DNA of 64,000 nucleotides from Methanothrix sp. GTDB lineage: Archaea > Halobacteriota > Methanosarcinia > Methanotrichales > Methanotrichaceae. Where the stretch lies: positions 1,408,001-1,472,000 of the forward strand of contig OY821645.1 of the NCBI GenBank assembly GCA_963682135.1. The letters run 5' to 3'. Positions within the stretch are counted from its first letter, which is position 1. Every line of letters begins with the position of its first letter. The position numbers were made by a program, and so were the translations under genes. Below the pieces are notes generated by a model that saw only the letters and a list, made by a program, of their open reading frames with translations, was not told where the DNA came from and did not search any database. Below, piece by piece: positions 22,915 through 42,435 of this stretch.

Positions 22915-22952
22915 GCTTATTAGATAGGATTATGTCTTACTTATTGGTGGTC

Positions 22953-24233
22953 ATGTTGCTTTCCGTCCGTTCGCTACTATTATTATGTTTACTAATATCA
23001 ACACTGCTGGCCGGCGCAGCTTCGGCTGAAGAATCTGCTATCAATGGCGCTGATAATGCCTGGGTGCTCATCAGTGCTGCTCTCGTCCTGATCATGATTC
23101 CCGGCGTGGGCCTCTTCTACGGAGGCATGGTTAGAAAGAAGAATGCCATTTCAACGATCATCTTCAGCTTTGCCGTTATGGGCATCATAAGCCTGCAGTG
23201 GATCTTGTACGGCTATACCCTGGTCTTCGGAAAAGACATAGGCGGCCTCATCGGTGGCCTGGACTTCCTGGGACTGGCGGGTGTTGGCATGGGCGTGAAA
23301 GAGGGGCTGACTATTCCCTCGCTCACCTTTATGATCTTTCAGGCCATGTTCGCCATCATCACCGTCTCTCTTATCACGGGTTCCTACGTGGAGCGGATCA
23401 AGTTCAGCTCATTTCTCGTCTTCTCCTTAGCCTGGGCTACTCTGGTCTACGATCCTGTGGCTCACTGGGTTTGGGGCGGGGGCTGGCTGCAGCAGATGGG
23501 CGCCCTGGACTTTGCCGGCGGCATAGTGGTGCACATCACGGCAGGCGTCTCTGCCATGGCCGTAGCTATGGTTATCGGTGTGCGTAAGGGCTTTGGCACG
23601 GACCCGATGGAGCCGCATAACATTCCCACCACTGTGATTGGCGCGGCTCTGCTCTGGTTTGGATGGTTTGGTTTTAACGCGGGCTCCGCTCTGGCGGCAA
23701 ACGGCATCGCCGCCAATGCTTTTGTCACCACCAACACCTCCGCCGCGGCTGCAGCCACCACCTGGATGCTCCTCTCCTGGCGGCAGAGAGCGCCTTCTGC
23801 CTTGGGCATGGTGACGGGCGCAGTGGCAGGCCTCGCGGCAATAACGCCCGCCGCAGGCTATGTGACGCCCCTGGCGGCCATTCCCATTGGCATCGTAGCT
23901 GCCATTGTTGGCTACTATGCCATCGTCCTCATCCGAGGAAGCGCCAGGGTGGACGATTCACTGGACGTTTTAGCCTGTCATGGCATTGGCAGCACCTGGG
24001 GGGTACTGGCTACGGGCATCTTTGCCACCATCGGAGCTACGGGTCTGCTCTCCGGAAATTCTCATCAATTAATGGTGCAGGCCGCATCTGTGGCGGTAAC
24101 CTGGGGCTACTCATTTATTGTCACCTATGGCCTGGCCAGGATCATCGATGCGGTCATGGGGTTGCGGGTGCGGGATGATGAAGAATCGGTGGGCCTGGAC
24201 ATCAGCCAGCATGGCGAAGGCGCTTACATGTAA
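22953..24233 (+). CDS. amt: Ammonium transporter (first copy)
   Basis: [37 protein letters not shown] (twin His intact). Confidence 0.96.
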   Translation: MLLSVRSLLLLCLLISTLLAGAASAEESAINGADNAWVLISAALVLIMIPGVGLFYGGMVRKKNAISTIIFSFAVMGIISLQWILYGYTLVFGKDIGGLIGGLDFLGLAGVGMGVKEGLTIPSLTFMIFQAMFAIITVSLITGSYVERIKFSSFLVFSLAWATLVYDPVAHWVWGGGWLQQMGALDFAGGIVVHITAGVSAMAVAMVIGVRKGFGTDPMEPHNIPTTVIGAALLWFGWFGFNAGSALAANGIAANAFVTTNTSAAAAATTWMLLSWRQRAPSALGMVTGAVAGLAAITPAAGYVTPLAAIPIGIVAAIVGYYAIVLIRGSARVDDSLDVLACHGIGSTWGVLATGIFATIGATGLLSGNSHQLMVQAASVAVTWGYSFIVTYGLARIIDAVMGLRVRDDEESVGLDISQHGEGAYM

Positions 24234-24244
24234 AGTGGGGGAAT

Positions 24245-24583
24245 ATGAAGAAGATTGAAGCCATAATTCGGCCTGAAAAGCTGCACCTTTTGCGTGGCAA
24301 GCTGGACAGTAAGGGCTTTTCGGGAATGACTGTGAGCGAGGTCAAGGGCCGGGGCCGGCAGAAGGGTGTCACCTTGCAGTGGCGGGCCGGTGATTACCGG
24401 GTGGAGTTCTTGCCCAAGATGAAGCTGGAGATGGTAGTGGATGACAAGGATGCGGAAGCTGTCATCGACCTCATCTGCGAGCATGCCCAAACGGGCGAAG
24501 CAGGGGACGGCAAGATCTTCATCTATCCGGTGGATGATGTGGTGCGTGTGCGCACGAAGGAGCGGGGGTGCGGGGCGGTATAG
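24245..24583 (+). CDS. glnK: P-II family nitrogen regulator
   Basis: AIIRP, GRGRQKG, TGEAGDGKIF, RVRT. Confidence 0.95.
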   Translation: MKKIEAIIRPEKLHLLRGKLDSKGFSGMTVSEVKGRGRQKGVTLQWRAGDYRVEFLPKMKLEMVVDDKDAEAVIDLICEHAQTGEAGDGKIFIYPVDDVVRVRTKERGCGAV

Positions 24584-24985
24584 CCGCGCGCCCTCTTTTA
24601 GCGATCTATTTTCCTTAATGCGCCTCCCGCTATTATCCTTGTCATTCTCTCATCGGGATTTCGCGTCTTTATGCCTTCGCCTGAAAACTTTTTGCGTCTG
24701 ACGCGAAGGGCGCGAAGAAGACAACCATTGATCGCCGATCCTCACGTTCTTTCTTCATAGTAATATTTGTACGGAATAGATGATGGAAGGGCGATGTCCA
24801 TCCTTCAGCCAGGATGCTGATGCAGTCCAAGGATGGACGGACCCGGTCTGCGCTGCCCCTGTGGGCAAGGCTCATCGGAGACGAGCGCATTCGTTCTCCC
24901 AGAGGCCGAGCCGAGAGGCATTGCAGAAGATCACACTTCCTCGGGATTACTGTCTTGCCGTAAAAAAGTGACCAGGGTATTCTTC

Positions 24986-25981
24986 TTACCTTGGAAACTC
25001 GGCCCCTTTTGGAGCCTTGAAGCAGGTGCAATCAAAGACGCCAGTCACATCTGAGCCGAATCCGTTGATGCCCTTCTGGTATGTTTCGGGCATGCTCAGA
25101 TATCCGCCGGAGCAGCAGGGCAGCCAATCGTCGTCTTCCTCTATCTCTTCTACCGATGCCGTGAGGTTCATCAGCTTCTCAATGTGGTAGGTTCCCCAGT
25201 AGTCTTCATCCACATCCACCAGCGGCTTCTTCCAGGCTGTGTTTACGATGAACTCATTTTCGTCGTCGTCTTCTTGGGATACGATATCAGGATCTCCCTG
25301 CAATAGCCCGATGTGCGCACGGCCTTCTGTCATATCCTCAGAGATGTTCATCATGCTCACGCTGGGGTCCTCCTCAGAGATGAAGTCCTTGGCCAGGACT
25401 TCCAGTTCCTTGTCCAGGGCATGGGCATATTCCACTTCGTGGTGCATTAGCGTGAAAGATCCGCGATTCTTAAGCCAGGTCTTCTCCTTGAGCAGGGAGT
25501 TGAACTGCAGCGGACTGGCAGCGTAAAATCCCGTACCTATGCTGAGGGCTATTGGACTATATGTCATGGTGTTATCTTCTTTAAGTTGAATGCAGCTTAG
25601 CGCCTCCGTATAGTCCGGTTCATAGTTGTCGCTCTGATCGACTCCATAATTGGTATAATCGGAACTTTCTGTGGACAGCATCGATTCTGTATCGATCGTG
25701 CCGCTGCCGTGGCTGTAGTCCAGAACTTCAACTCCATTGTTGCCCGTTCCGTTGAGTCCCAGGGTATTGGGCATCTTCGCGTACTTGTAGTTCATGAAGT
25801 AGCCCGAGCCGGTCACGCTCTGTTGTATATCCAGAGTGAGGTTGTTCTTAAGGGTATATTCCGCTGATGCAATACTGGTCAAGAAGGCCACTAATAATAG
25901 TATCATCCCTAGCTTCTTCGTATCTATCCCTCCTGTGAATTGCGCCTGACCTTCACCAGAATTGCCTTCTAAGAAGGTCAA
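24986..25981 (-). CDS. Secreted acidic hypothetical protein with Cys-rich C-terminus (start may be 25906)
   Basis: Signal peptide KKLGMILLLVAFLTSIASA; C-terminal WLPCCSGG...FDCTC. Confidence 0.75.
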   Translation of the reverse strand: MTFLEGNSGEGQAQFTGGIDTKKLGMILLLVAFLTSIASAEYTLKNNLTLDIQQSVTGSGYFMNYKYAKMPNTLGLNGTGNNGVEVLDYSHGSGTIDTESMLSTESSDYTNYGVDQSDNYEPDYTEALSCIQLKEDNTMTYSPIALSIGTGFYAASPLQFNSLLKEKTWLKNRGSFTLMHHEVEYAHALDKELEVLAKDFISEEDPSVSMMNISEDMTEGRAHIGLLQGDPDIVSQEDDDENEFIVNTAWKKPLVDVDEDYWGTYHIEKLMNLTASVEEIEEDDDWLPCCSGGYLSMPETYQKGINGFGSDVTGVFDCTCFKAPKGAEFPR

Positions 25982-26144
25982 GTAATCTTACTTACTGATC
26001 ACGTATATGATATTATTGGATGAAAAATCATAACGATTACAGTAATTATCACAACAGTTATGAATTAGCATCTAATACATTGAGATAAAAATAAAAATTT
26101 CTGCTCATAGGAAGCTCCGAGGCAGTAAGAAAAATCACGGCAGG

Positions 26145-27934
<1,790 letters not shown>

Positions 27935-27977
27935 GCTCTATCACGTTCCTCGATGGAAGACCAACGAGCTGCAGATG

Positions 27978-28018
27978 ATATAAAAACTTTGTTAAAATAT
28001 TTTCATACTTGTTATGAA
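27978..28018 (-). promoter_or_regulatory. Perfect TTCATA-N5-TATGAA palindrome and TATA box of the second amt
   Basis: Palindrome at 28002-28018; TTTATAT on the minus strand at 27984-27978. Confidence 0.65.
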
Positions 28019-28084
28019 GAGCGCATAACTACATCACATTCTAAAAAGTGCCGATTATCTCTCTATAATATGCTGTGTCGCAGG

Positions 28085-28590
28085 ATTATTATAACCAAGC
28101 AGCTGCGGCCAACCACAAAGGCACGAAGGCACAAAGGACGCACAAAGAGATTCGCAGCGGCCCTCCAGCTTTGCGATTTTTGCAGATATGTAAGCCAGTC
28201 GAGCCTGATAGCCAGTCGACCTGTACCGGACCGTCCGGGCCTGCTGCTATTTCGTCAGGGTGAGATGGATTACCTAACAAGCGCTCGTATTCAGGGTAGT
28301 AGGCCGTTCGAGCTGAGATCAGGAATTTCATGTGAAGGTGGAAAGCCGCGAAGTTCCGATGAGAGAAGGACAATTTTTCCCAGATCCCTCAGGTCGCGCC
28401 GTTGGAGACGTTTCTCGACAAAGCCATTCGGGACGACTTCTGCCATCCGCCAGGCGGGCCGGGCTGCCTGGCGAGTTTGCAGCTGTTCTTGCTGGGGCCC
28501 GCGGTCTGCGGAGCCGGGTTTGCTGTGATGCGGTCCGAGTGGGCAGGTTTTTGGAAATGATGGCAGTCTACGTTTATTATTAACAGATAA
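28085..28590 (+). repeat. ~500-bp GC-rich repeat unit, copy 1 (diverged)
   Basis: TTATAA at 28089, ACCACAAAGGCACGAAGGCACAAAG at 28112, GAAGTTCCGATGAGAGA at 28350, GGAGACGTTTCTCGACAAAG. Confidence 0.85.
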
Positions 28591-29060
28591 ATATAACTAA
28601 ACAACTATGGTCAAACCACAAAGCACACAAAGATCACAAAGGACGCACAAAGACGTTTCAAGGACAATTATCGGCAGTATCCGGCTGGCCGATCTTTGCG
28701 TGACTGTGAGCCAGCCGCGCTCGGCACGCTCGACCGTGGGCCGGGCCGTCCGGGCTCGCTTCACTCGTCTCCGGACGGGCGCTCGGGCGGGCTCTCGCAT
28801 GGGCGCGCGGGCCTGCGTGGGCTTGTGGCCTGGGGGGCCGGTCGGGCCGAGATCACGGATTTCACGCGAAGGCGCGAAGCCGCGAAGTTCCGATGAGAGA
28901 TGGACAATTTTTCCCAGAGCCCCCGGGCCGCGCCGTTGGAGACGTTTCTCGACAAAGGCCATTCGGGGCGACTGCCGTCGTCTGCCAGGCGGGCCAAGCT
29001 GCCGGGCAAGCGCTCGTGCCAGGTGGGCCAGGAGGAAGGATGGCGGAAAGCATGCTGAGG
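28591..29060 (+). repeat. ~500-bp GC-rich repeat unit, copy 2
   Basis: ATATAA at 28591 (502 bp after copy 1); same ordered modules. Confidence 0.9.
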
Positions 29061-29068
29061 CATGAGCC

Positions 29069-29545
29069 TCAATCTAACTTGCCCTTAAGCGTATTGAGAT
29101 CATTACCTCTTATCAAAATTGAGTTGACATCGACCTCTTTGGCATGTTGATGCATTCCGGAGTCATCTGTGAATAATATGGCATCTTCTCTCTTGGCCAA
29201 AGCTATAAAATACGAGTCAAACCCGGAACAACCGGTCTCTAATGCCACATCCCACGCGACATTGAAAATAGCCTCTTCATCTGCTACGTTATATGATTTT
29301 AGGATTCCTTTTGATGCTCTTGCGGCCAGAGTTCTGCCAGCGAGCCGCTTGGCTACCGCAGCGGTTTCCACTACACAGACCTTAGGAACATGAACTTCTA
29401 CATCTCGCTCTTCTATAAGCTTGATGAGAGCTTTGCATTTTTCGTGGGTTTCCTGCTCTCTGGAATAGGCCTCTTGGGAGAGTGACCGGAGTGGTTTGAA
29501 GATGCTCTTAACTATAACGGATGTATCTAAAACGGCCCTAATCAT
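29069..29545 (-). CDS. vapC: VapC-family PIN-domain toxin
   Basis: VLDTSV, E(TAAV), FDSYFIALA, LFTDD acidic PIN residues. Confidence 0.9.
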   Translation of the reverse strand: MIRAVLDTSVIVKSIFKPLRSLSQEAYSREQETHEKCKALIKLIEERDVEVHVPKVCVVETAAVAKRLAGRTLAARASKGILKSYNVADEEAIFNVAWDVALETGCSGFDSYFIALAKREDAILFTDDSGMHQHAKEVDVNSILIRGNDLNTLKGKLD

Positions 29546-29732
29546 AGTATATTCTTGTCCGCGTCTCTTTCAGGACTGCGTCAATATCTTCCCTGGCTTC
29601 AGGCTCGCCCAGATCGTCCAGAAGATCGCTGAAGCTCTCATGAATGGTGATGCTCACCCGAGAATTATTGGGGAGATTCAGGCCCCCGAGAGGCTTGAGC
29701 ACATTATTTTCATAAATAGCTTTTATTTTCAT
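29538..29732 (-). CDS. Antitoxin, DUF104/AF2212-like
   Basis: IKAIYENNVLKPL...L.....V.I.I; overlaps the toxin start. Confidence 0.88.
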   Translation of the reverse strand: MKIKAIYENNVLKPLGGLNLPNNSRVSITIHESFSDLLDDLGEPEAREDIDAVLKETRTRIYYD

Positions 29733-29844
29733 ATCGGCACCTGATATTTAGGCGAAATGTAAACTGATATATGGACATGATCAATATTTAGAGCTGCCGA
29801 TGATGTCTTTTTTTCTTCATAACTCGGAAATTTGCTGCTACGTG

Positions 29845-30453
29845 GGACCGGGAGGCCGGTCGGGCCAGGTGTGCCAGCTTCTGGCAAGGGAGGTTTCCGG
29901 GCGCCGGATTTTGAGAAACGATGTCAGTTTTTAATACTATTAGCTGATAATTATAACCTGGCAACCACGGCCAACCACAAAGGCACGAAGGCACAAAGGA
30001 TGCAAAAAGAGATGCGCGGCGGCCCTCCAGCTTTGCGATCCTTGCGGGCCACCGCCTGTGGGCCGGGCCGTCCGGGCTCGCGTCGCTCGTCTGCGGACGG
30101 GCGCTCGGGCGGGCTCCCGCATGGGCGTGCGTGCCTGCGTGGGCTTGCTGCCTGGGGGCTGGTCGGGCTGAAATCACGGAATTCACGCGAAGGCGCGAAG
30201 ATTCGATGAGAGATGGACAATTTTTCGCCATGGCCCTCGGGCCGCGCCGATGGAGTCGTTTCTCGACAAAGGCCCATCCGGGGCGACAGCCGTCGTCCGC
30301 CAGGCGGGCCAGGCTGCCAGGCAAGCGCTCGTGTCAGGAGACTTGGAGGCCGGTCGGGCCCGATGGCCAGGTGTGCCAGCTTCTGGTAAAGGGAGTTTTC
30401 CGGGCGCAGGATTTTGGGGGCAGCCTCATTTCACCATTATTATTAGATAATAA
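29845..30453 (+). repeat. Tail of a unit plus ~500-bp repeat unit, copy 3
   Basis: Tail module GGCCAGGTGTGCCAGCTTCTGG at ~29863 and ~30365; TTATAA at 29951. Confidence 0.9.
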
Positions 30454-30510
30454 TTATAACCGAGCAGCTACGGCCAACCACAAAGGCACTAAGGCACAAA
30501 GGACGCACAC
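30454..30510 (+). repeat. Repeat head only (copy 4), interrupted by the hicBA cassette
   Basis: TTATAA at 30454 (503 bp after copy 3), then ACCACAAAGGCACTAAGGCACAAAGGACGCAC. Confidence 0.85.
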
Positions 30511-30540
30511 GATGATATATGTTACTAACAAAAATTATGG

Positions 30541-30762
30541 CTAATCATCCGAGAGCCACTCTTCACGAGAGATTCTTCCTTCTCGAAGAATCTCTGAGAT
30601 GAGATTTGCGCCGATCTCTCGTTTATGGTAGTTCGGTATGCGCACGAAGTTGTCTCCGCGGACCATGTAATCGTGATCCGAACCTGGAAATGGTCCTTCG
30701 AACCCTATTTTTTTCAATCGCCTAATGAGCTTGGCTCTTGAAACCGGTCCTAGTTTACTCAA
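30541..30762 (-). CDS. hicA: HicA-family toxin
   Basis: LIRRLKKIGF..P..GSDH..M......IPNYH...I....I..IL. Confidence 0.9.
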   Translation of the reverse strand: MSKLGPVSRAKLIRRLKKIGFEGPFPGSDHDYMVRGDNFVRIPNYHKREIGANLISEILREGRISREEWLSDD

Positions 30763-31012
30763 TTGCAGTCACCGGTTCTATTGATGCGGTTATCACATGC
30801 CCGCCTATTGGTGGAATGGACCGTCCCATGCGGAGCCTGAGTGCTATCCAGCCTTCGATAACCGAGATGAGCTCTTTGCGCGTCTCCTCGATAGTCTTGC
30901 CTGTGGCCCAAGCGCCCTGAAGCTCGGGTACTGAGGCGAAGATTGGTTCCTCATCATCGATAATCTTGTAAACAGCCAGTTCTAGAGCAGCCTCGATATA
31001 TTCAGAGAACAT
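30755..31012 (-). CDS. hicB: HicB-family antitoxin (short form, upstream of toxin)
   Basis: ASVPELQGAWATGKTIEETRKEL..VIEGW....IP. Confidence 0.9.
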   Translation of the reverse strand: MFSEYIEAALELAVYKIIDDEEPIFASVPELQGAWATGKTIEETRKELISVIEGWIALRLRMGRSIPPIGGHVITASIEPVTAIE

Positions 31013-31100
31013 GTTATGCTTCTATTGAGAGATGATGGAAAATATAACTTGCGCCAATGCTAATTCACCGGTGCTGGCTGAGATGTGGATTGCAGGAGCT

Positions 31101-31710
31101 GGATTTTTGGAAATGATGGTGGTTCGCCATTAATATTGGCTGAGAATTATAACCGAGCTGCTACTGGCACCACAAAGACACAAAGCGCACAAAGACGTTC
31201 AAAGAGCAATTCTCGGCAGTCTCCGGCTGGCCGATCTTTGCGTGTCTGTGGTCCAGCCGCGCTCGGCACGCTCGACCGTGGGCCGGGCCGTCCGGGCTCG
31301 CGTCACTCGTCTGCGGATGGGCGCGCGGGCGGGTTCCCGCATGGGCGCGCGGGCCTGCGTGGGCTTGCGGCCTGGGGGGCTGGTCGGGCCTAGATCACGG
31401 ATTTCACGCGAAAGCGCGAAGCTGCGAAGTTCCGATTAGAGAAGGACAATTTTTCGCCATAGCCCTCGGGCCGCGCCGTTGGAGGCGTTTCTCGACAAAG
31501 GCCATCCGGGGCGACAGCCATCGTCCGCCAGGCGGGCCAGGTGTGCCAGGCAAGCGCTCGTGCAGGGTGGGCCGGTATGGGCTTCATTGCGGGCTTTGGG
31601 CCAGCCGTTCTCGGCTGCTCCTCGACTGTGAACCAGGCCGTCCGGGCTCGCGTCACTCGTCTGCGGATGGGCGCGCGGGCCTGCGTGGGCTTGTGGCCTG
31701 GGGGGCCGTA
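31101..31710 (+). repeat. ~500-bp repeat unit, copy 5, plus partial internal duplication
   Basis: TTATAA at 31147; full module order; GGCCGTCCGGGCTCGCGTCACTCG...GGGGGCCG repeated at ~31635-31708. Confidence 0.9.
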
Positions 31711-32160
31711 TGGGTTTGGAAAAGATAGATGCAGAAGAGATCTATGGATAGACAAACCTGTCAGGAGTCGTGGCAAGCTATGGATCAATTTTAATATGAA
31801 TCAGATCATTTAGATTTTTGTTTTGCCGGTTGTGCTAACATGCATCTACCCAAAGGAGGAGTTCCCTCATTCCCGAAGAGATACAAGCGCAGTACTACGA
31901 TCTAAATGATAATCAGATGCCCTATGGCGGAGCCACTGACATTCACGGCTAGATCCTCAGGAAAGTCTCCAAAGAAGAGCAAGACAAGATGATGGCTCGC
32001 ATAAAAAAAGCCTTTGGAAAAGAGTAATCGCTATGTTGCGGGCGGCCATTGACGCGGATATATTCGTTTTCTCCATCAGTTAAAAAAAGCGAGAGTCTAA
32101 CCAAGCGGGAAATCAACCCATATGACATCAAAAAATTCTTATTTCATTTGAGCCCAACCT

Positions 32161-33499
32161 CCCGAAAAGTTCAGGCGCACAAGTTTAGCGCCTGAAGAAT
32201 ATCTCTCTGTTTTTTTGTCATTTCGGTGACGATTATCTGTCCGTCCGCAAGCGCAATTTTCCTTAATTTCTCCAATTGCAAAAGAAGAAGTTCAACGGAA
32301 TATTTGTCTAGTATCTCTGCTTTCCTCATCATATTCATCAGTCGTGACCTGATGATCAGACTCAGGAAAGCGATAAAAATGAATCCTCTTGTTGTCTCTT
32401 CGCCATGAGTATTCAATGGAAGGATGTCAATTTCGCTTTTCAATGCCTTGAAGCTCTTTTCAATTTCATCGCGTTCGCGATAGAGAGAAAGGCACTTCAT
32501 CTCGTCAAAGTTTCCTGAGTAGAATATAATATACTTGCCCATTTTGTTCATTCTTTGTGCAACTGCGTTTTGTTTTATCGTAACTTCAAAGCGATTATCC
32601 ATAACATTCCAGTCGAAGAAGTTTCCAAATCCGTGTGCTTTATCTTTGAAAACTACGTGGGGGTTACTGTTCTTATTCAAGCGCACCTTGAGCAACTCTT
32701 CACGAATATCATAGAGTCTGCTTAGGAGTGTCTGCTTCTCGGTTTGCTCTAATTTGGGATCATAATAAACATACCCCCTGATTTCAATTGAATCAATAAT
32801 ATATGAAATTGGTTTGGCAAAAATGGGATCCTTGTTAAACTTGTGGAGATATTTTACATCATCAAGATCCTTTTGCACTTCCGTCAGCAGGTGCTTCAAA
32901 TCATTCAACTGCAATCTGGCCGCCATAATAAATGAGATTTTATTCGTCATCAGCTCGCGAAGGTTGCTCAAGCTGAAAAATCCACGATCCATCACAGCAA
33001 CATAATTTTGGATGCCATGCGCTTTTATCTTTTTTAGAGTGCCGGAAAGCGTACTGACATCGGAAATACTGCCGGGGAAGATGTCATACATCACGGGTAT
33101 CCCTTTATCCTTATCCAGAATCAGGGACAGATTGATTTGCGGAAGAGACTCGCCATCACGATTGTACCCGTACTCAAGAATATTGATGAGTTGAGAGTAA
33201 CTTGACAGGCTCGTAATATCGTAAATGAGTGTGTCTTTCGTACCGGTTCCCTCGATAAGCTGGGACATGAACCTGTCTGGAATATTGCTTTCACCCAATC
33301 GACCAAGAAGCTCACTCACTCGCTGACTGGTTAGATTGATTTGCGGGGATTCAAGGGCAAGAGAAGTTCCTTCATACCAGGAATCTACATTTCTCATTGC
33401 AGTAGGCCGAATAATCCGGTTGAATGCCAATGCACGAACCATGGACACCTCCGAAGGAGGCAATAAAACCTCTAGATAGCGTTCCAGATTAAGCTCTTC
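32161..33499 (-). mobile_element. IS1634-family element, 5'-truncated by IS66
   Basis: YDITS, GYNRDG..LPQINL, DRGFFS, Y.ERDEIEKSF..LK. The frame stays open up to the IS66 left end. Confidence 0.88.
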
Positions 33500-33960: not shown

Positions 33961-35101
33961 GAGGATTCCTATAAACCAGCCCAATTCTTAATATAGAAAT
34001 GTTTATATACTATTAACACCATTATATGTTATGAATTCTTTTACCACTTGGGTATTGCGAGGGCTTAGCGAGACGCAAGGTAAATCTCGGTTATCGCAGA
34101 TATCGGATTTGATCGACTGGTTACCCATTCGCCGGATACTGGATGAGATGTATGACAATAAGAGCGAAAAGGGTGGAAGGCCCAACTGCGATGTAATTTT
34201 GATGTTCAAGATCCTGATACTCCAACAATGGTACGGCTTGAGCGATTTGGAAATTGAGCGACAAATGGCTGACCGCATCTCGTTTATGTCATTTCTTGGT
34301 TTCCCTGATATGTTCCCCGATTCTAGGACGATATGGCTATTTAGAGAGCGCATGGCCAATGCTGGAAAAGATGAAGTTGTCTGGGCAGAACTTCAGAGGC
34401 AATTGGATGCTATGGGTTTACAGGTCAAACATGGAACGATCCAAGATGCCACGTTCATTGAAGCAGATCCCGGAAAGTTCAAGAAACCACGTGGAAAAGA
34501 TGCTAAGACCCGCCGCAGTAGGGATGGGACAATAGCCAAGAAGGGCAATGAATTCCATTTTGGCTACAAACTGCATCAAAAAACCGATATTGATTATTGC
34601 CTGATTCGTGAAATCGAGACTTCCACGGCTTCGTTGCATGATAGTCAGGTTGATCTCTCAATTGAGGATGAAGTGGTGTTAAGAGACAGGGGGTATTTTG
34701 GGGCAAAGGCCAGGGGAATAGATTTTACAATGAAGCGCAGGACAACCGATAAGCCACTGGAGGAACTTGATAAGGAGCGAAATCGATTGATCAGCAAGCT
34801 AAGATCCCCAGGTGAGCGCCCCCATGCAGTGATCAAGAGAATTTTTAACTCGGGCTGGGTGTTGGTTACAACGATAAAGAGGGTTCATATAAAAATGATG
34901 GCTACCGCCTTTGCTTTCAATTTATATCAGCTCTGCACTCTGAAAAAAGCCGGAATCATTTGAGCCTAGCGGACGCTGTCGAAGAATGATCAGAAAAGGG
35001 GGCTGACGAATGAAGTATTTAGCGAAATTGCCTCCTCGTGAAGCGAATTATGCATGAATTTCTGAAAACAATCTCTTAAACCGAAGTAAATAGGAATCCT
35101 C
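33961..35101 (+). mobile_element. IS5-family element nested in IS66
   Basis: TIR GAGGATTCCTAT / ATAGGAATCCTC; 4-bp TSD TATA at 33957-33960 and 35102-35105. Confidence 0.95.
34031..34963 (+). CDS. IS5-family transposase
   Basis: GGRP, LQQWYGLSD, PDSRTIWLFRE, QDAT, FGYKLH, DRGY, RSPGERP. Confidence 0.93.
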   Translation: MNSFTTWVLRGLSETQGKSRLSQISDLIDWLPIRRILDEMYDNKSEKGGRPNCDVILMFKILILQQWYGLSDLEIERQMADRISFMSFLGFPDMFPDSRTIWLFRERMANAGKDEVVWAELQRQLDAMGLQVKHGTIQDATFIEADPGKFKKPRGKDAKTRRSRDGTIAKKGNEFHFGYKLHQKTDIDYCLIREIETSTASLHDSQVDLSIEDEVVLRDRGYFGAKARGIDFTMKRRTTDKPLEELDKERNRLISKLRSPGERPHAVIKRIFNSGWVLVTTIKRVHIKMMATAFAFNLYQLCTLKKAGII

Positions 35102-36071
35102 TATAGTCACCGAATACAAAATTGCGCACTACAGATGTCCCTGTTGCTTGAAAGAAGTTGCTGCAAAAGATCCCGGCTGTCCACATGAAGGCAAATTCGG
35201 AAACAATGTAATTGCGCAGGCGACACTGCTAAGATATGATGGCAGAATGCCTCATAGAAAGATTCACGACGCAATGATGAGACTCTTTGGTCTGAAAATA
35301 AGTCCAGCTACGATACTCGATTTAACTCGTCGCGCTGCTGATGCGGTTCAATCGGAATACGACGCGATTCTAAAGATGATTCGAGGTGCTCCAATCCTGT
35401 ATGTGGATGAAACTTCAATCCATGTCCAGGGAGAAAGACATTGGATCTGGACCTTCTCCACGCCATCGGAGTCTTTTTTCGTGATCCGGAAGAGTCGAGG
35501 CATGAAGGTTCTGAACGGAAGTCTTAACTCGGAGATTCAAGGGAATAATCGTGTGCGATGGTTGGAAACCCTATGCCAGGTTCACAAATCGCATTCAGCG
35601 ATGTTGGGCGCATCTACTTAGAGAGTCAAAAGAGATTGCTGAGAAGTTTGAGGAAGCAATTCCGCTACATAACATGCTCAAAGAGCTTTACGAGACACTA
35701 ACCGAAGCTCTAGAAAGCGATCCTCCGCCAAAAGTCAGAAAGACTCTATGGCAATTGGCGCGAAAAGCGCTTCGGCACTGGGTCATGAAAGAGTATTCTA
35801 TCGAGAAAGTCCGGAAATTTATCGGGAAAATCAACAACGGATTTGACTACTGGTTCACCTTTATCGTAATTCCCGGTGTAGAGCCGACTAATAATCGAGC
35901 GGTGAGAGCGTTGCGACCCCATGTTGTTTTGAGAAAGATCCTGGGCACACTGCGCAATGACAAAGGAACTTCGATTCATGAGCGAATCATGACGACACTG
36001 GCCACCTGGGGACAGAGAGGATTGAATTGCCTCCAAATGCTAACTACGAAGCTGACCAGCTAAACACGTAC

Positions 36072-36246: not shown

Positions 36247-37580
36247 GGTAGTGTGCCCGCTTTGCTGTAAAATCTCGGTTAAATCCCACGTCAAGAGCCG
36301 ACGTGCTGTGAACGAGATAACAGCAAGTTATTTCTTCACAAGATTTAATAATTAGCCCTGTATCCCCAAAGTTGTCGAAACCTAAGGAGGGACACAGAGC
36401 TATGAATATGGTAGACTTAGCAGAAGATTATCTTATCGATCCAAAAGAGGGTATGAGGAAGTTAATAGCTGGCTATCTAAATGAAGTAATGCAACTTGAA
36501 GCCCAAAAACAAATTCAGGCAGGACCTTACGAGCGCACCGGCAAGAGAAAAGGCCATCGTAACGGATCAAGACCGCGATCACTTAAGACCATTCACGGTG
36601 ACATAACTCTCGATAAACCTGAAATCCGGGAGTTCCCATTCAAGTCAAAAGTATTCGAGAGATATTCTCGTGTAGAGGATTCTGTAAGAGTCGCTGTTGC
36701 GGAATCGTATTTAGAGGGTGTATCAACCAGAAAAGTCGAGAAGATATTCTCGAAATTTGGATTGCATGGCATCTCTGCTTCGGAAGTCTCACGAATAACC
36801 AAACGTCTTGATAAACAGGTTAAAGAGTTCCTTAACAGGCCCATTGAAGGAGCCATCCCTTATTTGTTCGCGGATGCAAGCTATTTCAAGGTTAGAACAG
36901 ATGGCAGGTATATCAACAAGGCATTACTCGTTGTAACCGGCATTCGCGAAGACGGCTATCGTGAGATTCTGAGTGCGGCGGTTGCTGATAGCGAAGAAGA
37001 GTATTGTTGGGAAAGCTGCTTTGAAGATTTGAAAGCCAGAGGACTTGACGGCGTCAAATTAGTGATATCCGATGGTCACAAAGGGATACAGGCTGCGGTT
37101 GAAAAGGTATTCGTTGGTGCATCTTGGCAAATGTGCAATGTCCATTTTATGCGTGCAGTGCTCAAAAACATATCGAAAAAGGATAAAAAAGAAGTTGCGT
37201 ACCTGCTGAAAGATGCTCTTGAAGATGAGCGCAAAATGCAGGAAACAGCAGTAATCCTTGATGGAATGGGTTATAAAAAGTCTGCAGACACAATCGATAG
37301 GTTCCGGTTCGATCTCTGGAATTACAAATCATTTCCAAGATCGCACTGGAGAAAGATCCGGACTACTAACGGTCTGGAAAGAATCAACAAAGAGCTGAAG
37401 CGAAGAAGTCGTGAATCTGGAGCGTACTCTAATGATCAATCACTCCTGAGAGTTGCAGTCTGCATCATGATGGACATCCATGAGGATTGGATAACTGGTA
37501 ATAGGTATTTATCCTTGGAAGAGTAAAAAGAACCAGGATATAGGGCTACTGCGATTTTACAGCAAAGCGGGCACGCTACC
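36247..37580 (+). mobile_element. Intact IS256-family element
   Basis: ~28-bp TIR GGTAGTGTGCCCGCTTTGCTGTAAAATC / GATTTTACAGCAAAGCGGGCACGCTACC; 8-bp TSD AAAACAAT at 36239-36246 and 37581-37588. Confidence 0.96.
36402..37526 (+). CDS. IS256-family transposase
   Basis: RNG.R.R, GVSTRKV, DASYFKVR, SDGHKG, Q.C.VHF, TTNGLERINKELKRR. Confidence 0.95.
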   Translation: MNMVDLAEDYLIDPKEGMRKLIAGYLNEVMQLEAQKQIQAGPYERTGKRKGHRNGSRPRSLKTIHGDITLDKPEIREFPFKSKVFERYSRVEDSVRVAVAESYLEGVSTRKVEKIFSKFGLHGISASEVSRITKRLDKQVKEFLNRPIEGAIPYLFADASYFKVRTDGRYINKALLVVTGIREDGYREILSAAVADSEEEYCWESCFEDLKARGLDGVKLVISDGHKGIQAAVEKVFVGASWQMCNVHFMRAVLKNISKKDKKEVAYLLKDALEDERKMQETAVILDGMGYKKSADTIDRFRFDLWNYKSFPRSHWRKIRTTNGLERINKELKRRSRESGAYSNDQSLLRVAVCIMMDIHEDWITGNRYLSLEE

Positions 37581-37941: not shown

Positions 37942-39074
<1,133 letters not shown>

Positions 39075-39075
39075 A

Positions 39076-39429
39076 ATGAAAGAAGTCCTGGCGGTCATCC
39101 AGATGAACAAGATGGAGTGCACCAAAGACGCCCTGGAGGTCATAGGCATCCCATCCATCACCGTCTACAAAGCCAGCGGCCGGGGAAAGCAGAAAGGTCT
39201 GCAAATCCCCCATCCATCCCAGCTTGATTCGTCGAACAGGAACATGTTATTCATTCCCAAGAGGATGATCTCGGTCATGGTGGAGGACGAATTCGTCCCG
39301 GCAGTGGTGGCAGTTATCACTAAGATCAATCGCACCGGCAACTTCGGTGACGGCAGGATCTTCGTCTGCCCGGTGGAAGAGTCAGTTCGCATAAGGACCG
39401 GTGAGAGAGGGAGCGTGGCCATATCATGA
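39076..39429 (+). CDS. nifI2: P-II family nitrogenase regulator NifI2
   Basis: [31 protein letters not shown]. Confidence 0.93.
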   Translation: MKEVLAVIQMNKMECTKDALEVIGIPSITVYKASGRGKQKGLQIPHPSQLDSSNRNMLFIPKRMISVMVEDEFVPAVVAVITKINRTGNFGDGRIFVCPVEESVRIRTGERGSVAIS

Positions 39430-41075
39430 GCGGAGTTGAAAAAACTGTGGAGAGCGTAGTGGATAGTCCGATCCCCGGCGCAAAAGAGCCGATTTCAATC
39501 GCCCACAGCAAACAGGTGGTGGAGGGAATGCTGAAAAGCCTTCCCAAGAAGACGATTGAGGTGAGAAGCAAGCATGTGGTGGTCAAAGATTCCTGCGAGG
39601 TCGAGCAGAAGATCGATGCCAACAGTCGCACCATCCCCGGCATCCTCACCAACCGGGGCTGCGCTTACGCCGGCTCCAAAGGCGTGGTCTTCGGGCCCAT
39701 CAAGGATATCCTGCATATCACACATGGGCCCATCGGATGCGCTTACTTCACCTGGGGAACCAGAAGAAATCTCATGAGCAAAGAAGACGGCAGAGACAAT
39801 TTCGCCGGCTACTGCTTGAGCACTGACGTCAAGGAGACCGATATCGTCTTTGGAGCCGAGAAAAAGCTGGCAGCCGCCATTCGAGAGGCTTATGCCATCT
39901 TCAAGCCCCAGTGCATCTCGGTCTTCTGTACCTGCCCCATCGGCCTCATCGGCGACGATATCGAATCGGTCTGCAAGAAGGCGGAAGCGGATCTGAGAAT
40001 CAAGGTCATCCCCGTGCGCTGTGAGGGCTACCGCGGCGTCAGCCAATCGGCAGGCCACCACATCGCCTCTAATTCACTGATGGAGCACCTGGTGGGCAGC
40101 GAAGAGCTGGAAGACCCCGGGCCCTTCGACGTTAACGTCTTCGGCGAATACAACATCGGTGGAGACTACTGGGTGGTCAAGGATCTGCTGGAGAAGGTGG
40201 GATACAGAGTCGTCAGCCCCTTCACGGGAGATGCTTCCTTCCACGATATCGCCAAAGCTCACCGGGCCAAGCTCAACATCCTGCTCTGCCACCGCTCCAT
40301 CAACTACACCAATCGCATGATGGAAGAGAAGTACGGTATTCCCTGGTTGAAGGTCAACTATCTGGGGGTAGAAGACACCATCAAAACCCTGCGTGACATG
40401 GCCGCCTTCTTCGACAACCCGGATCTGACCAAAAAGACCGAGGCAGTGATCGCCGAGGAGATGGCCAAAATCCAGCCGGTTATCGATATGTACCGCAAGA
40501 GGCTGGCCGGAAAGAGGGTCATGATCCTGGTGGGAGGATCACGCGCTCATCATGTCCGCAATATGTTCGAGACCCTGGGCATGGATGTGGTCGTGGCCGG
40601 CTACGAGTTCGCCCATCGGGATGACTATGAGGGTAGACGTGTGCTCTCCAGCATCGTTCATACCGGACAGTCCAAGGTACTGGCCGATATCCATTACAAA
40701 CGCGATCCCAACGTGGTTTCGCCCTACGACGATGCCGCTATCCAGAAGAAGAAAGAAAAAATTCCAAGACTGATGGACTATGAAGGCCTGCTGCCCCATA
40801 TGAAAGACGGCCAGGTCATGATAGATGACTACAGCCATCACGAGTGCGAGCGCCTGGTGAAGGATCTGGGAATAGATCTCTTCTGTTCGGGAATCAAAGA
40901 CAAGTACGTCTTCCAGAAGATGCACATCCCCTCCCGGCAGATGCACTCCTATGACTACAGCGGACCCTACACCGGCTTTGAAGGCTTCGTGCAGTTTGCC
41001 AAGGACATCGACATGTCTGTGAACAGCCCAACCTGGAAATTCATAAACCCGCCCTGGAGGCAGAACAATGCTTGA
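39426..41075 (+). CDS. nifD: Nitrogenase MoFe protein alpha subunit
   Basis: P-cluster Cys in GCAYAG, HGPIGC and TCPIG; GVSQS.GHH; cofactor ligands CHRS and MHSYDY; YEFAH with a long insertion. Confidence 0.97.
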   Translation: MSGVEKTVESVVDSPIPGAKEPISIAHSKQVVEGMLKSLPKKTIEVRSKHVVVKDSCEVEQKIDANSRTIPGILTNRGCAYAGSKGVVFGPIKDILHITHGPIGCAYFTWGTRRNLMSKEDGRDNFAGYCLSTDVKETDIVFGAEKKLAAAIREAYAIFKPQCISVFCTCPIGLIGDDIESVCKKAEADLRIKVIPVRCEGYRGVSQSAGHHIASNSLMEHLVGSEELEDPGPFDVNVFGEYNIGGDYWVVKDLLEKVGYRVVSPFTGDASFHDIAKAHRAKLNILLCHRSINYTNRMMEEKYGIPWLKVNYLGVEDTIKTLRDMAAFFDNPDLTKKTEAVIAEEMAKIQPVIDMYRKRLAGKRVMILVGGSRAHHVRNMFETLGMDVVVAGYEFAHRDDYEGRRVLSSIVHTGQSKVLADIHYKRDPNVVSPYDDAAIQKKKEKIPRLMDYEGLLPHMKDGQVMIDDYSHHECERLVKDLGIDLFCSGIKDKYVFQKMHIPSRQMHSYDYSGPYTGFEGFVQFAKDIDMSVNSPTWKFINPPWRQNNA

Positions 41076-42426
41076 TTACACACCCAAACAGATGGCCGAG
41101 CGCGAGACATTGGTCATAAACCCAGCCAAGATCTGCCAGCCGATAGGGGCCATTCTTGCCTACAAAGGCATCCACAACTGTATGCCTATCACTCATGGCT
41201 CGCAGGGTTGCTCGTCTTACCTGCGCATGGTGCTGGCCCGCCACTACCGCGAGCCCACGCTGGCGGCAACCTCCTCCTTCACTGAGGATTCGGTGGTCTT
41301 TGGAGGCAGGAACAACCTCAAGGAGGCTGTAGACAACGTGGTCAACATCTACCATCCTGATGTGCTGGCCATAAACACTACCTGCTCCTCTGAAACCATA
41401 GGCGACGATGTGAGCAGCTTCATGGAGGAGATCAAGGAAGAGGAGTTCTTCGATCCCAAGACGAAAGTGGTCATAGCCAATACCCCCAGCTACGTTGGCT
41501 CGCACATCACCGGATACGATAATGCAGTCAAAGCCATCGCCCAGACCTTTCCCAGGAAGAGCAAGCCCAACGGAAGACTGAACATCATTCCCGGTTTCGT
41601 GGACCCGGGAGACATCCGGGAGATCAAGAGGCTGCTTTCCATCATGGGAGTCTCCACGATCGTATTCCCCGATACCACCGATGTCTTCGACGCGCCTCTC
41701 ACCCCGCAGTCAGGCGGCCTGTACCCGCCGGGTGGAACGACTATCCCGGATCTGGTTGACGCCGGCAACTCCCGTGCCACCATCGCTTTGGGAAGAACCG
41801 CCGGAGCTTCTGGTGCTATGGTGCTGAAGGGCAAGTTCGGCATACCTGCGGTCATAGGCCCCATGCCCATCGGCATCAGAAACAGCGATGCCTTCGTCAT
41901 GTCTGTGTCCAGCCTCATGGATGTCCCAATTCCGCAAGATATCGAGTACGAACGGGGCCGGCTGGTGGACATGATGACCGACGCTCATCCTCATTTCCAT
42001 GGCAAGGACCTGGCCATATTCGGAGACCCGGATACCGTTATCGGTCTGGTTAGCCTGGCGGTGGAGATGGGCATGAATCCGGTCTTTGCTCTCACCGGAA
42101 CGCCGGACAAGAAGTTCGCAGAGGAGGTGCATAACCTGGCATCCGATTGCGAAGCACTGCAAGGTGACACCTTCCTTCTCCATCAAAAGATCAAGAACCA
42201 TCCCGTGGATATGCTGATTGGAAACACCTATGGGAAATTGATCGCCCGGGCGGAGGACATCCCGCTGGTACGGGTGGGCTTCCCCATCACCGATCGGGCC
42301 AACCTGCATTATTTCCCAATCATTGGATACGCGGGAACGGCTCGATTGGTGGAGATAATCGGCAACACCTTCCTGGAAAGAAGGGATCGAGACTCGGATG
42401 ACACGCACTTCGAGATGATCCTTTAG
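41068..42426 (+). CDS. nifK: Nitrogenase MoFe protein beta subunit
   Basis: INPAKICQP, HGSQGC, TTCSSETIGDD, TPSYVGSH, GFPITDR. Confidence 0.97.
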   Translation: MLDYTPKQMAERETLVINPAKICQPIGAILAYKGIHNCMPITHGSQGCSSYLRMVLARHYREPTLAATSSFTEDSVVFGGRNNLKEAVDNVVNIYHPDVLAINTTCSSETIGDDVSSFMEEIKEEEFFDPKTKVVIANTPSYVGSHITGYDNAVKAIAQTFPRKSKPNGRLNIIPGFVDPGDIREIKRLLSIMGVSTIVFPDTTDVFDAPLTPQSGGLYPPGGTTIPDLVDAGNSRATIALGRTAGASGAMVLKGKFGIPAVIGPMPIGIRNSDAFVMSVSSLMDVPIPQDIEYERGRLVDMMTDAHPHFHGKDLAIFGDPDTVIGLVSLAVEMGMNPVFALTGTPDKKFAEEVHNLASDCEALQGDTFLLHQKIKNHPVDMLIGNTYGKLIARAEDIPLVRVGFPITDRANLHYFPIIGYAGTARLVEIIGNTFLERRDRDSDDTHFEMIL

Positions 42427-42435
42427 GGGACTGGC

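Follow-up and report, generated by a model that had tools for sequence, protein, structure and literature searches.

The window analysed here, a stretch of 64,000 nucleotides from the archaeon Methanothrix sp. (GenBank assembly GCA_963682135.1, contig OY821645.1, positions 1,408,001 to 1,472,000 of the forward strand), carries a group of GC-rich repeats placed between an amt-glnK operon and a cluster of four insertion sequence (IS) elements ahead of nifH. Toxin-antitoxin genes are interspersed with the repeats. What kind of element are these repeats? A preliminary description had singled out one unit and had taken it for a promoter followed by a structured RNA of about 450 nt. The explanation that we consider probable is a different one: the repeats would be mobile mosaic repeats, similar to REP (repetitive extragenic palindromic) sequences, bacterial interspersed mosaic elements (BIMEs) and MITEs (miniature inverted-repeat transposable elements), which have collected in an insertion hot spot alongside toxin-antitoxin cassettes and IS elements. 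Three other explanations, namely promoters of non-coding RNAs, protein-binding arrays and recombination sites of a cassette platform, are not mutually exclusive with mobile repeats. Coordinates without a unit refer to the window, whereas positions in kb refer to the genome unless stated otherwise.

A mosaic of separable modules

Five copies of the repeat, all on the + strand, lie within 28.07-31.71 kb of the window. Four of them are long and one consists of the head only, and in register they are 62-92% identical. Their occurrence is far above chance and the repeat units are real. The multicopy character and the GC-rich bodies reported earlier are both confirmed: the GC fraction reaches 0.735 (28700-28899), 0.71 (30000-30199) and 0.73 (31200-31399), compared to 0.35-0.50 in the flanks and 0.501 in the genome. 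The + strand of the repeats is G-rich, with a GC skew of +0.1 to +0.19. The self-complementary pieces that had been pointed out, GCACAAAG at 28646-28653, CTTTGCG at 28694-28700 and GAGACGTTTCTC, are indeed found there.

The unit is a mosaic of separable modules: a tail with an AT-rich box and a CACAAAG array, a GGGCC-rich block, and a CGCGAAG array with a run of five T residues (T5). The tail (T module) is GC-rich, and the AT box reads TTATAACC. The H module consists of the AT box, the motif ACCAC and three or four heptamers (CACAAAG/CACGAAG) separated by spacers of 1-4 nt; one or two inverted heptamers (CTTTGCG..CTTGCGG) are located downstream of it. The M module is composed of TCAC(GCGAAGNN)3 and then GATGAGAG..GACAATTTTT; its sequence is TTTCACGCGAAGGCGCGAAGCCGCGAAG, followed by TTCCGATGAGAG..GACAATTTTT. 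Both H and M represent the same kind of element in two flavours, with arms that consist of tandem 8-9-nt units. When 28615-28912 is folded, the beginning of the M array is paired by the CTTTGCGTGA stretch, which places the GGGCC-rich block (B2) in the loop of the foldback. The unit thus appears to be a set of palindromic elements nested in one another.

Copy 2 (28567-29068) is the unit picked out by the preliminary description. The TATAA of its AT box is at 28592-28596, its four CACAAAG heptamers lie within 28615-28653, and the inverted heptamer mentioned above (28694-28700) is followed by the GGGCC-rich block at 28731-28836, the array TCACGCGAAGGCGCGAAGCCGCGAAG at 28862-28887 and T5 at 28908-28912. 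The tail is shortened at ~29030-29068 by the insertion of the vapBC genes. Copy 1 (28065-28560), the most diverged, is devoid of the tail module; TATAA is at 28090-28094 within the AT box, the CACAAAG/CACGAAG array at 28112-28148, and a degenerate CGCGAAG-type array at 28326-28378, with T5 at 28374-28378. Copy 3 (29846-30430) starts with a tail module (29846-29925) that is the continuation of the unit split by vapBC. It contains TATAA (29952-29956) in the AT box, a heptamer array (29974-30010), a CGCGAAG array one octamer shorter (~30177-30225), T5 (30220-30224) and a complete tail (30300-30430). Copy 4 (30430-30509) comprises the AT box and the heptamer array only, with ACCACAAAG at 30477, and stops after the fourth heptamer, 32 nt from the stop codon of hicA. 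In copy 5 (31065-31710) a partial tail is joined to an AT box with TATAA at 31148-31152, a heptamer array (31169-31205) and a CGCGAAG-type array (31399-31454) with T5 at 31450-31454. The GGGCC-rich block of copy 5 is duplicated internally, 31584-31708 being ~84% identical to 31235-31330, a sign of local recombination or slippage within the units. The head-first unit of ~450-500 nt that had been proposed is real as a repeat, whereas its phase is just one way to cut the mosaic.

The order of the modules and the distances between them differ among genomes. Two blocks remain contiguous across relatives, 'tail + AT box + H' (window 30300-30509) and the CGCGAAG array (M) with ~150 nt (window 28833-29030). 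The distance from H to M is ~80 nt in two relatives' loci (L052 and L054) and 167-204 nt in the window. Relatives keep the inverted heptamers CTTTGCG-ATC-CTTGCGG downstream of H. The heptamer itself varies by lineage and reads CACAAAG, CACAGAG, CGCAGAG or CACGGAG. In genome G005 (locus L056, G005:C1:746000-760000), duplicated glycosyltransferase, PDDEXK_3 and PIN/UPF0175 genes are separated by tandem palindromic units of ~155 nt, which consist of CACAAAG arrays and fill these gaps; the CACAGAG flavour is present there too.

The modules are dispersed over the whole genome. A 509-nt unit used as a query matched 36 places, mostly as pieces (query positions 12-95, 172-290 or 274-357). An nhmmer search at E up to 1 detected 31 H and 33 M sites, the weakest of which are marginal, and modules stand alone or form inverted pairs at ~40 sites other than the window. 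Arrays of at least three heptamers, as defined by a regular expression, number 43, and the reversed control gave none. With 24 of these arrays on the + strand and 19 on the - strand, and with a weak GC skew, no replichore polarity was discernible in this genome. Stand-alone H modules form convergent inverted pairs at 171.3 and 2485.0 kb and divergent ones at 1270.4 and 2886.2 kb, and many M sites have an inverted CTTCGCG arm ahead of them. An IS200/IS605-type element starts right after an M array that is cut after two octamers (L062:1320-1345, ~877.9 kb), which suggests that the M array, or its hairpin, is a target of IS insertion.

The 509-nt unit has matches in 16 of 18 genomes of the same genus and in none of 12 from other genera of the class, several of the genomes searched being incomplete. 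A blastn search in distant mode of plasmid and phage collections gave no match to this unit. Contigs from sequencing runs break at the repeats, and their joints, being paralogous copies found at other places of the genome, carry no information on rearrangement or expression. No earlier description of the repeats was found in the full-text literature, searched also with 14-15-nt strings of the arrays, subscription journals lying outside this search.

Presence and absence of the elements at orthologous sites was followed at two loci, in five genomes each; a third locus (2011 kb) was unusable because its flanking gene is multicopy in the relatives. At 171.3 kb, both G000 and G015 have the inverted H pair. 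Its flanks abut in G012, and 28 nt (G017) and 12 nt (G005) are found in place of ~185-200 nt. The pair at 1270.4 kb is also present in G000 and G015, is longer in G017 and missing in G012, and other short sequence occupies its place in G005 and G008. We infer that mobility is the cause of this polymorphism.

These properties resemble those of several known mobile repeats. Like the REP, BIME and REPIN sequences of enterobacteria and pseudomonads, the repeats are short, imperfect intergenic palindromes present in tens to hundreds of copies. They are clustered as mosaics with other short motifs and with alternating orientation of the units, often lie between convergent or co-directional genes, and are gained and lost between relatives. 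Unlike REP sequences, they have arms built of tandem 8-9-nt arrays and not of a single GC-rich stem, and no GT[AG]G head with a REP-associated tyrosine transposase (RAYT) gene flanked by inverted copies was found. They also occur in an archaeon and share their array type with many phyla; REP families, by contrast, are usually confined to one species or genus. The small size, the inverted ends of the stand-alone pairs and of the Sphingomonas gilva element described below, and the presence or absence at orthologous sites are features of MITEs. Similarly to the Correia/NEMIS elements of Neisseria and the BOX elements of Streptococcus pneumoniae, the repeats are small, non-coding and multicopy, have inverted ends and a variable number of internal sub-repeats, and may bring promoter- or terminator-like signals beside genes. 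They differ from MITEs in that no cognate transposase was found and in that the units in the window are direct repeats of a larger mosaic, not single elements bounded by terminal inverted repeats. Archaeal counterparts of these repeat classes are poorly catalogued.

The elements would then be non-autonomous mobile DNA that is gained and lost at intergenic sites. They would become nested in each other and increase in number locally through duplication and recombination. Within the genus they would accumulate in permissive hot spots that also collect toxin-antitoxin cassettes and IS elements, the one described here being situated between the amt-glnK operon and the nif operon. The TATA-like box and T5 may turn the units into outward promoters or into terminators (insulators), and antisense RNA might be made in single cases, for example from copy 4 towards hicA.

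RNA structure, coding potential and the TATA-like box

The repeats have no coding potential. The copies are separated by indels of 1 and 8 nt, and open reading frames (ORFs) across the repeat bodies have no Pfam match, which rules out a protein-coding function. ORFs across the GC-rich units should be treated as spurious in annotation.

The conserved structured RNA of ~450 nt that had been proposed for each unit is not supported. A search of the whole window with 4227 Rfam models gave no match at the gathering score; at E up to 10 the only match in 27900-31900 was a chance miRNA (E 8.5, 18 bits compared to a gathering score of 48). Fold stability was judged by z-scores against dinucleotide shuffles. 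The values were -0.93 for the + strand and +0.68 for the - strand of copy 2, -0.93 for copy 5, -1.06 for the segment from the putative start to T5 (28615-28912), and 0.04 for the compact unit of the relative's locus L052. None of these five folds, on either strand, has excess folding energy (z -1.06 to +0.68).

Covariation analysis of the larger family leads to the same result. RNAalifold found no consensus pairs in an alignment of 37 head regions from this genome and its relatives, each running from 52 nt ahead of the end of the heptamer array to 105 nt beyond it. These were selected from 47 candidates; the ten that were dropped either had no downstream block or belong to a divergent CGCAGAG subfamily. 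For 26 middle (M) regions, those of 56 nhmmer hits that span at least 150 model positions, 11 pairs were predicted at -8.5 kcal/mol with a covariation term of -0.01. The helix between GCACAAAG and CTTTGCG, on which the preliminary description had relied, is paired in 68.5% of the cells of the 37-row alignment, equal to shuffled alignments: shuffles reached this percentage in 302 of 500 cases and the covariation score in 448 of 500. The resemblance of the repeats to the large structured non-coding RNAs of Rfam (OLE, GOLLD, HEARO and ROOL) is limited to a length of several hundred nucleotides, the absence of coding sequence, a relatively high GC content and the multicopy state. Unlike these RNAs, the repeats match no model, have no excess folding energy and show no covariation as a family. 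Thus, a tempting false lead is removed, namely that the GC-rich units constitute a large structured RNA family.

The AT-rich head is a different matter. The pattern TATAAN{16,18}ACCACAAAG has five matches in the window (28090-28120, 28592-28623, 29952-29982, 30455-30485 and 31148-31177), all on the + strand, and none in 100 dinucleotide shuffles. The ACCACAAAG motif begins at 28112, 28615, 29974, 30477 and 31169, and a TTATAA or ATATAA hexamer begins 22-24 nt upstream of it in each of the five heads, exactly as had been described. In the genome, the spacing between TATAA and ACCAC recurs in 12 matches (reversed control, none). An alignment of 83 hits, relatives included, shows that the AT box is kept 16-20 nt from ACCAC, and in some loci of relatives two divergent arrays surround one shared palindromic GGTTATAACC box. 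The spacing matches the archaeal TATA-to-start geometry. The promoter of the preliminary description therefore stands as a TATA-like box at fixed spacing, a feature of the sequence in the window, the genome and the relatives, and its activity as a promoter is plausible.

This box is the basis of another explanation of the repeats, in which each AT box would drive a + strand RNA that starts at the first heptamer and ends mostly at T5. Such an RNA would be ~290 nt long in copy 2 and ~150 nt in the compact units of relatives, would need no conserved fold, and would act as a protein sponge via its heptamers or as an antisense RNA to toxin genes. The TATA-like box with its fixed spacing and the divergent GGTTATAACC pairs agree with this model, as does the G-rich + strand. 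A T5 tract lies behind every M array in the window (28374-28378, 28908-28912, 30220-30224 and 31450-31454), and archaeal RNA polymerase can take T5 as a stop. Furthermore, H faces the 3' end of a toxin gene or operon in several arrays: hicA in the window (32 nt), a PIN gene in locus L050 (~200 nt), HepT in a second array of this genome (L058, ~195 nt) and hicAB in L043. The null results for Rfam, folding energy and covariation argue against this model, and so do further properties of the box and of the modules. In many of 44 tRNA upstream regions in this genome, and upstream of amt, AAAG[GC], which resembles the purine-rich BRE, precedes a box of the TTTAAAT type, whereas the box of the repeats reads GCTGATAATTATAACC and lacks AAAG (judged by eye and not by a score). 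Nor do stand-alone H sites lie preferentially ahead of co-oriented genes: a co-oriented gene start lies within 250 nt of 11 of 21 such sites, compared to a fraction of 0.43 by chance, the genes being crude longest-ORF calls; H was accordingly rejected as a general gene promoter. The same type of array is present in bacteria, where an archaeal promoter is meaningless, and single modules are found alone, a separation that an RNA gene would not tolerate. On balance, an origin of the repeats as promoters of non-coding RNAs is unlikely.

The control of the toxins by convergent antisense transcription, as suggested earlier, is not supported as a rule, since the orientation of the cassettes relative to the repeats varies among arrays. 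In copy 2, T5 (28908-28912) falls between the putative start and vapC, so that transcription begun at 28615 would for the most part stop near 28912 and leave 157 nt up to vapC. The situation is different in copy 4, from which antisense transcription into hicA would be possible because no T5 tract precedes hicA.

Several observations weigh against mobile repeats. The fixed spacing between the AT box and ACCAC exceeds the need of a passive repeat and would suit an active promoter or a site for a protein. The four long copies in the window share a 90-pair fold in which eight pairs are changed on both sides, compared to an average of 2.4 double changes in shuffles, none of 500 of which reached eight. 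This similarity of folding would favour an RNA. The signal is weak, however: there are four rows, the structure was derived from these same rows, most or all of the double changes are apparently in copy 1, the most diverged (as read from the alignment), and the covariation term of RNAalifold, +0.19, gives no net support. The presence or absence of elements at orthologous sites could come from deletion too. One possible target-site duplication of 5 bp, GAAAT, is seen at 1270 kb in comparison with the empty site of G012, and no clean duplication is seen at the 171 kb locus.

Nor was any transposase gene, or any other gene for mobilisation, found to be connected with the elements. The genome has seven Y1_Tnp matches. 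The one that was inspected, at 878 kb, is a tnpA of IS200/IS605 type followed by a long second ORF, which was taken as tnpB without a family search; five more are near-identical (open frames of 155-156 aa) and were taken as IS copies. No Y1 gene flanked by inverted arrays was seen in this genome or in the bacterial loci that were fetched, and two of four bacterial genomes searched, those with 45 and 17 array copies (see below), have no Y1_Tnp. A link to RAYT or IS200 elements was rejected as far as tested. The nhmmer lists of this genome contain no inverted H or M pair at an IS-like distance, neither a dedicated search for an autonomous element nor a systematic look at the ends of the IS copies in the window having been made, and no tyrosine recombinase gene lies within ~195 kb of the window.

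Heptamer arrays in bacteria and phages

An exact 25-mer from copy 2 (28863-28887) occurs at no fewer than 124 loci in a collection of species-representative genomes, 80 of which were listed and inspected, with taxa taken from the record titles. Among the matches listed, the Methanothrix-type extension (TTCCGATGAGAG..GACAAT) is limited to records with Methanothrix or Methanotrichaceae in the title. Among the same matches the array is present in bare form, and in many cases has an inverted partner, in Methanoculleus, Planctomycetes (Pirellulaceae, Kuenenia), Verrucomicrobia/Opitutales, Lentisphaerae, Sphingomonas, Burkholderiales, Gemmatimonadetes, Caldilinea and Muribaculaceae; Proteobacteria, Chloroflexi and Bacteroidetes are likewise named in the titles of the 25-mer loci. 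The copy number of TCAC(GCGAAGNN)3, with up to one mismatch allowed, was determined in five genomes, in all of which the reversed control gave zero. There are 198 copies in Oligosphaera ethanolica, 45 in Sphingomonas gilva, 4 in a metagenome-assembled genome (MAG) of Kuenenia, 17 in a Gemmatimonadetes MAG and 248 in a proteobacterial MAG of 2.2 Mb. IMG/VR contigs contain the pattern as well, at 61 loci. It occupies many intergenic gaps in the contigs that were looked at, one of which also carries a portal gene. The presence of a CGCGAAG octamer array with a GGTTCAC lead in many phyla and in phage contigs, at up to ~250 copies per genome, was unexpected. If the arrays belong to one mobile family, its range is unusually broad for such elements. 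The spread of the module across domains is the part most worth following up.

The arrangement of the arrays could be examined in two of these bacteria. The alignment of seven S. gilva copies reveals a foldback element ~230 bp long, the arms of which are inverted. The order within the element is GGTTCAC(GCGAAGNN)3, (AAG)n, GGTTCAC with CGCAGAG/CGCGGAG units, a centre, and then the inverted copy. Because the element holds both flavours of the heptamer, it combines them as in the methanogen. In Oligosphaera (G031, contig C1) the arrays form tandem units of 110-165 nt. Among the matches listed, 33 of the 34 exact matches before 1.69 Mb are on the - strand and 63 of the 66 at 2.42-3.60 Mb are on the + strand; 46 further matches lie outside this listing, and many of those listed are tandem neighbours, so that the independent loci are far fewer. 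The switch of strand may follow the direction of replication, the positions of the origin and terminus not being part of the comparison. A polarity of this kind is a known property of elements, for example those of the IS200/IS605 family, whose movement proceeds via single-stranded DNA at the replication fork.

A broader proposal, which we regard as rather unlikely, can be built on these findings. The heptamer-array modules (TCAC or ACCAC followed by tandem C-R-C-N-R-A-G) might represent an undescribed palindromic class of mobile elements of Archaea, many bacterial phyla and phages, which inserts via single-stranded DNA at the fork. In the methanogen genus, this class might have developed into mosaics bearing promoters, which would scaffold, insulate or regulate in antisense the arrays of toxin-antitoxin and defence genes. 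Insertion via single-stranded DNA at the fork would explain the strand switch in Oligosphaera.

The tandem 8-9-bp units could alternatively be operator- or centromere-like sites of a small cooperative protein, such as one of the ribbon-helix-helix type, carried by mobile elements or by toxin-antitoxin modules; the arrays would then control or insulate their neighbours. There are precedents for such sites in the tandem 8-bp met boxes recognised by MetJ and in the heptad arrays recognised by omega. It is in favour of this explanation that the heptamers are conserved whereas the spacers of 1-4 nt vary, which leaves the arms of a pair short of full complementarity. The arrangement can be direct, convergent or divergent, the arrays are positioned just downstream of a TATA-like box, and they are associated with toxin-antitoxin islands. 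However, the heptamers are lineage-specific (CACAAAG, CACAGAG, CGCAGAG and CGCGAAG) and would demand many co-evolving proteins, the spacing is variable (8, 9 or 11 nt), and no candidate protein has been identified. The 198-248 copies per genome and the tandem units of Oligosphaera fit selfish repeats better. Protein-binding arrays are consequently a quite improbable explanation. If there is a common protein partner behind the array, this partner is worth finding.

Toxin-antitoxin cassettes and the neighbourhood of the repeats

Two toxin-antitoxin cassettes are embedded in the repeat region. The first comprises a vapC-like PIN-domain toxin gene (29069-29545, - strand; Pfam PF01850, E 1.9e-10) and its partner, an AF2212-like antitoxin gene (29538-29732, - strand; PF01954, E 4.6e-10). 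This vapBC cassette, with its own flanks of ~45 and 110 nt, interrupts a tail module, which resumes at 29846; the cassette is an insertion into a repeat unit. The second cassette directly follows the truncated heptamer array of copy 4. It consists of a hicA-like toxin gene (30541-30762, - strand; PF07927, E 1.8e-5, 25.2 bits, slightly below the 27-bit cut-off) and a hicB-like (UPF0150) antitoxin gene (30755-31012, - strand; PF21748, E 2.9e-26).

The association is not limited to the window. A second array in the same genome (L058, 591.6-597.0 kb, - strand) contains an MNT/HepT pair and adjoins a gene for a SIR2 + STAND NTPase protein of 1123 aa and an AT-rich gene of 370 aa without a family. 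In eight array loci of relatives, 119 ORFs were called crudely, many of them surely spurious, and 40 have a Pfam hit at E up to 1e-4. Toxin-antitoxin-type families account for 24 of these 40: PIN, AF2212-like, DUF2281, UPF0150, DUF4258, MqsA-like, ParE, MNT, HepT, UPF0175, DUF3368 and DUF2283 were all seen. Transposases of the IS21 and IS110 types are present in the relatives' array loci as well.

The turnover of cassettes is visible in a contig of genome G015 (L045, G015:C65:7000-10433), which matches window 27000-28240 colinearly at 86.6% identity and includes the head of copy 1. Beyond this head, the contig contains the same repeat modules with other cassettes: a GNAT gene, and a DUF4258 gene beside an ORF that has no Pfam hit and is presumed to encode the antitoxin. 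Since different cassettes occupy the orthologous site, the amt-adjacent site is a conserved hot spot with cassette turnover. The modular repeat family thus marks hot spots of turnover of toxin-antitoxin and defence genes in a globally important lineage of acetoclastic methanogens.

It might be supposed that the repeats are integron-like recombination sites, at which toxin-antitoxin and defence cassettes are captured and shuffled. Like integrons, of which the chromosomal ones can also be rich in toxin-antitoxin genes, the arrays consist of small cassettes between repeated non-coding elements, all eight relatives' loci are interleaved with small toxin-antitoxin operons, and the content differs at the orthologous site in G015. 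This analogy does not extend to the machinery. The genome has four matches to PF00589 (at 912, 1635 and 2807 kb), the nearest ~195 kb from the window (1408-1472 kb) and none near the second array (591-597 kb); with no tyrosine-recombinase integrase close to either array in this search, an integron was rejected. The junctions differ, vapBC being inserted in a tail and hicAB following a heptamer array, and the orientation of the cassettes, which have promoter-like boxes of their own, is variable. Furthermore, the units are mosaics of 300-600 nt that do not have attC architecture, and the same modules are widespread away from any cassette. A cassette platform is therefore a very improbable explanation of the repeats.

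The amt gene that borders the repeat region (26480-27934, - strand; PF00909, with a glnK partner of PF00543) belongs to one of two amt-glnK pairs that lie in opposite orientation at window 22932-27934. On the other side of the repeats, the IS cluster is composed of a DDE_Tnp_1 element (32171-33463), a DUF772/DDE element (34031-34963), a split IS66 (35148-36063) and an IS256-type element (36372-37526). Downstream of the cluster, nifH starts at 37945 and opens the nif operon (37945-43851), which contains nifH, P-II genes and three Oxidored_nitro genes. The island of repeats and IS elements thus separates amt from nif. The two amt operons of genome G008 adjoin each other directly in divergent orientation, with 416 nt between them, which places a rearrangement breakpoint at the island. 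An inverted repeat of the form TTCC-N5-GGAA (TTCCTCGATGGAA) is located at window 27946-27958, 12-24 nt upstream of the amt start codon and, on the - strand, downstream of an AAAG-TTTTTATAT box. It is a candidate operator of a nitrogen regulator.

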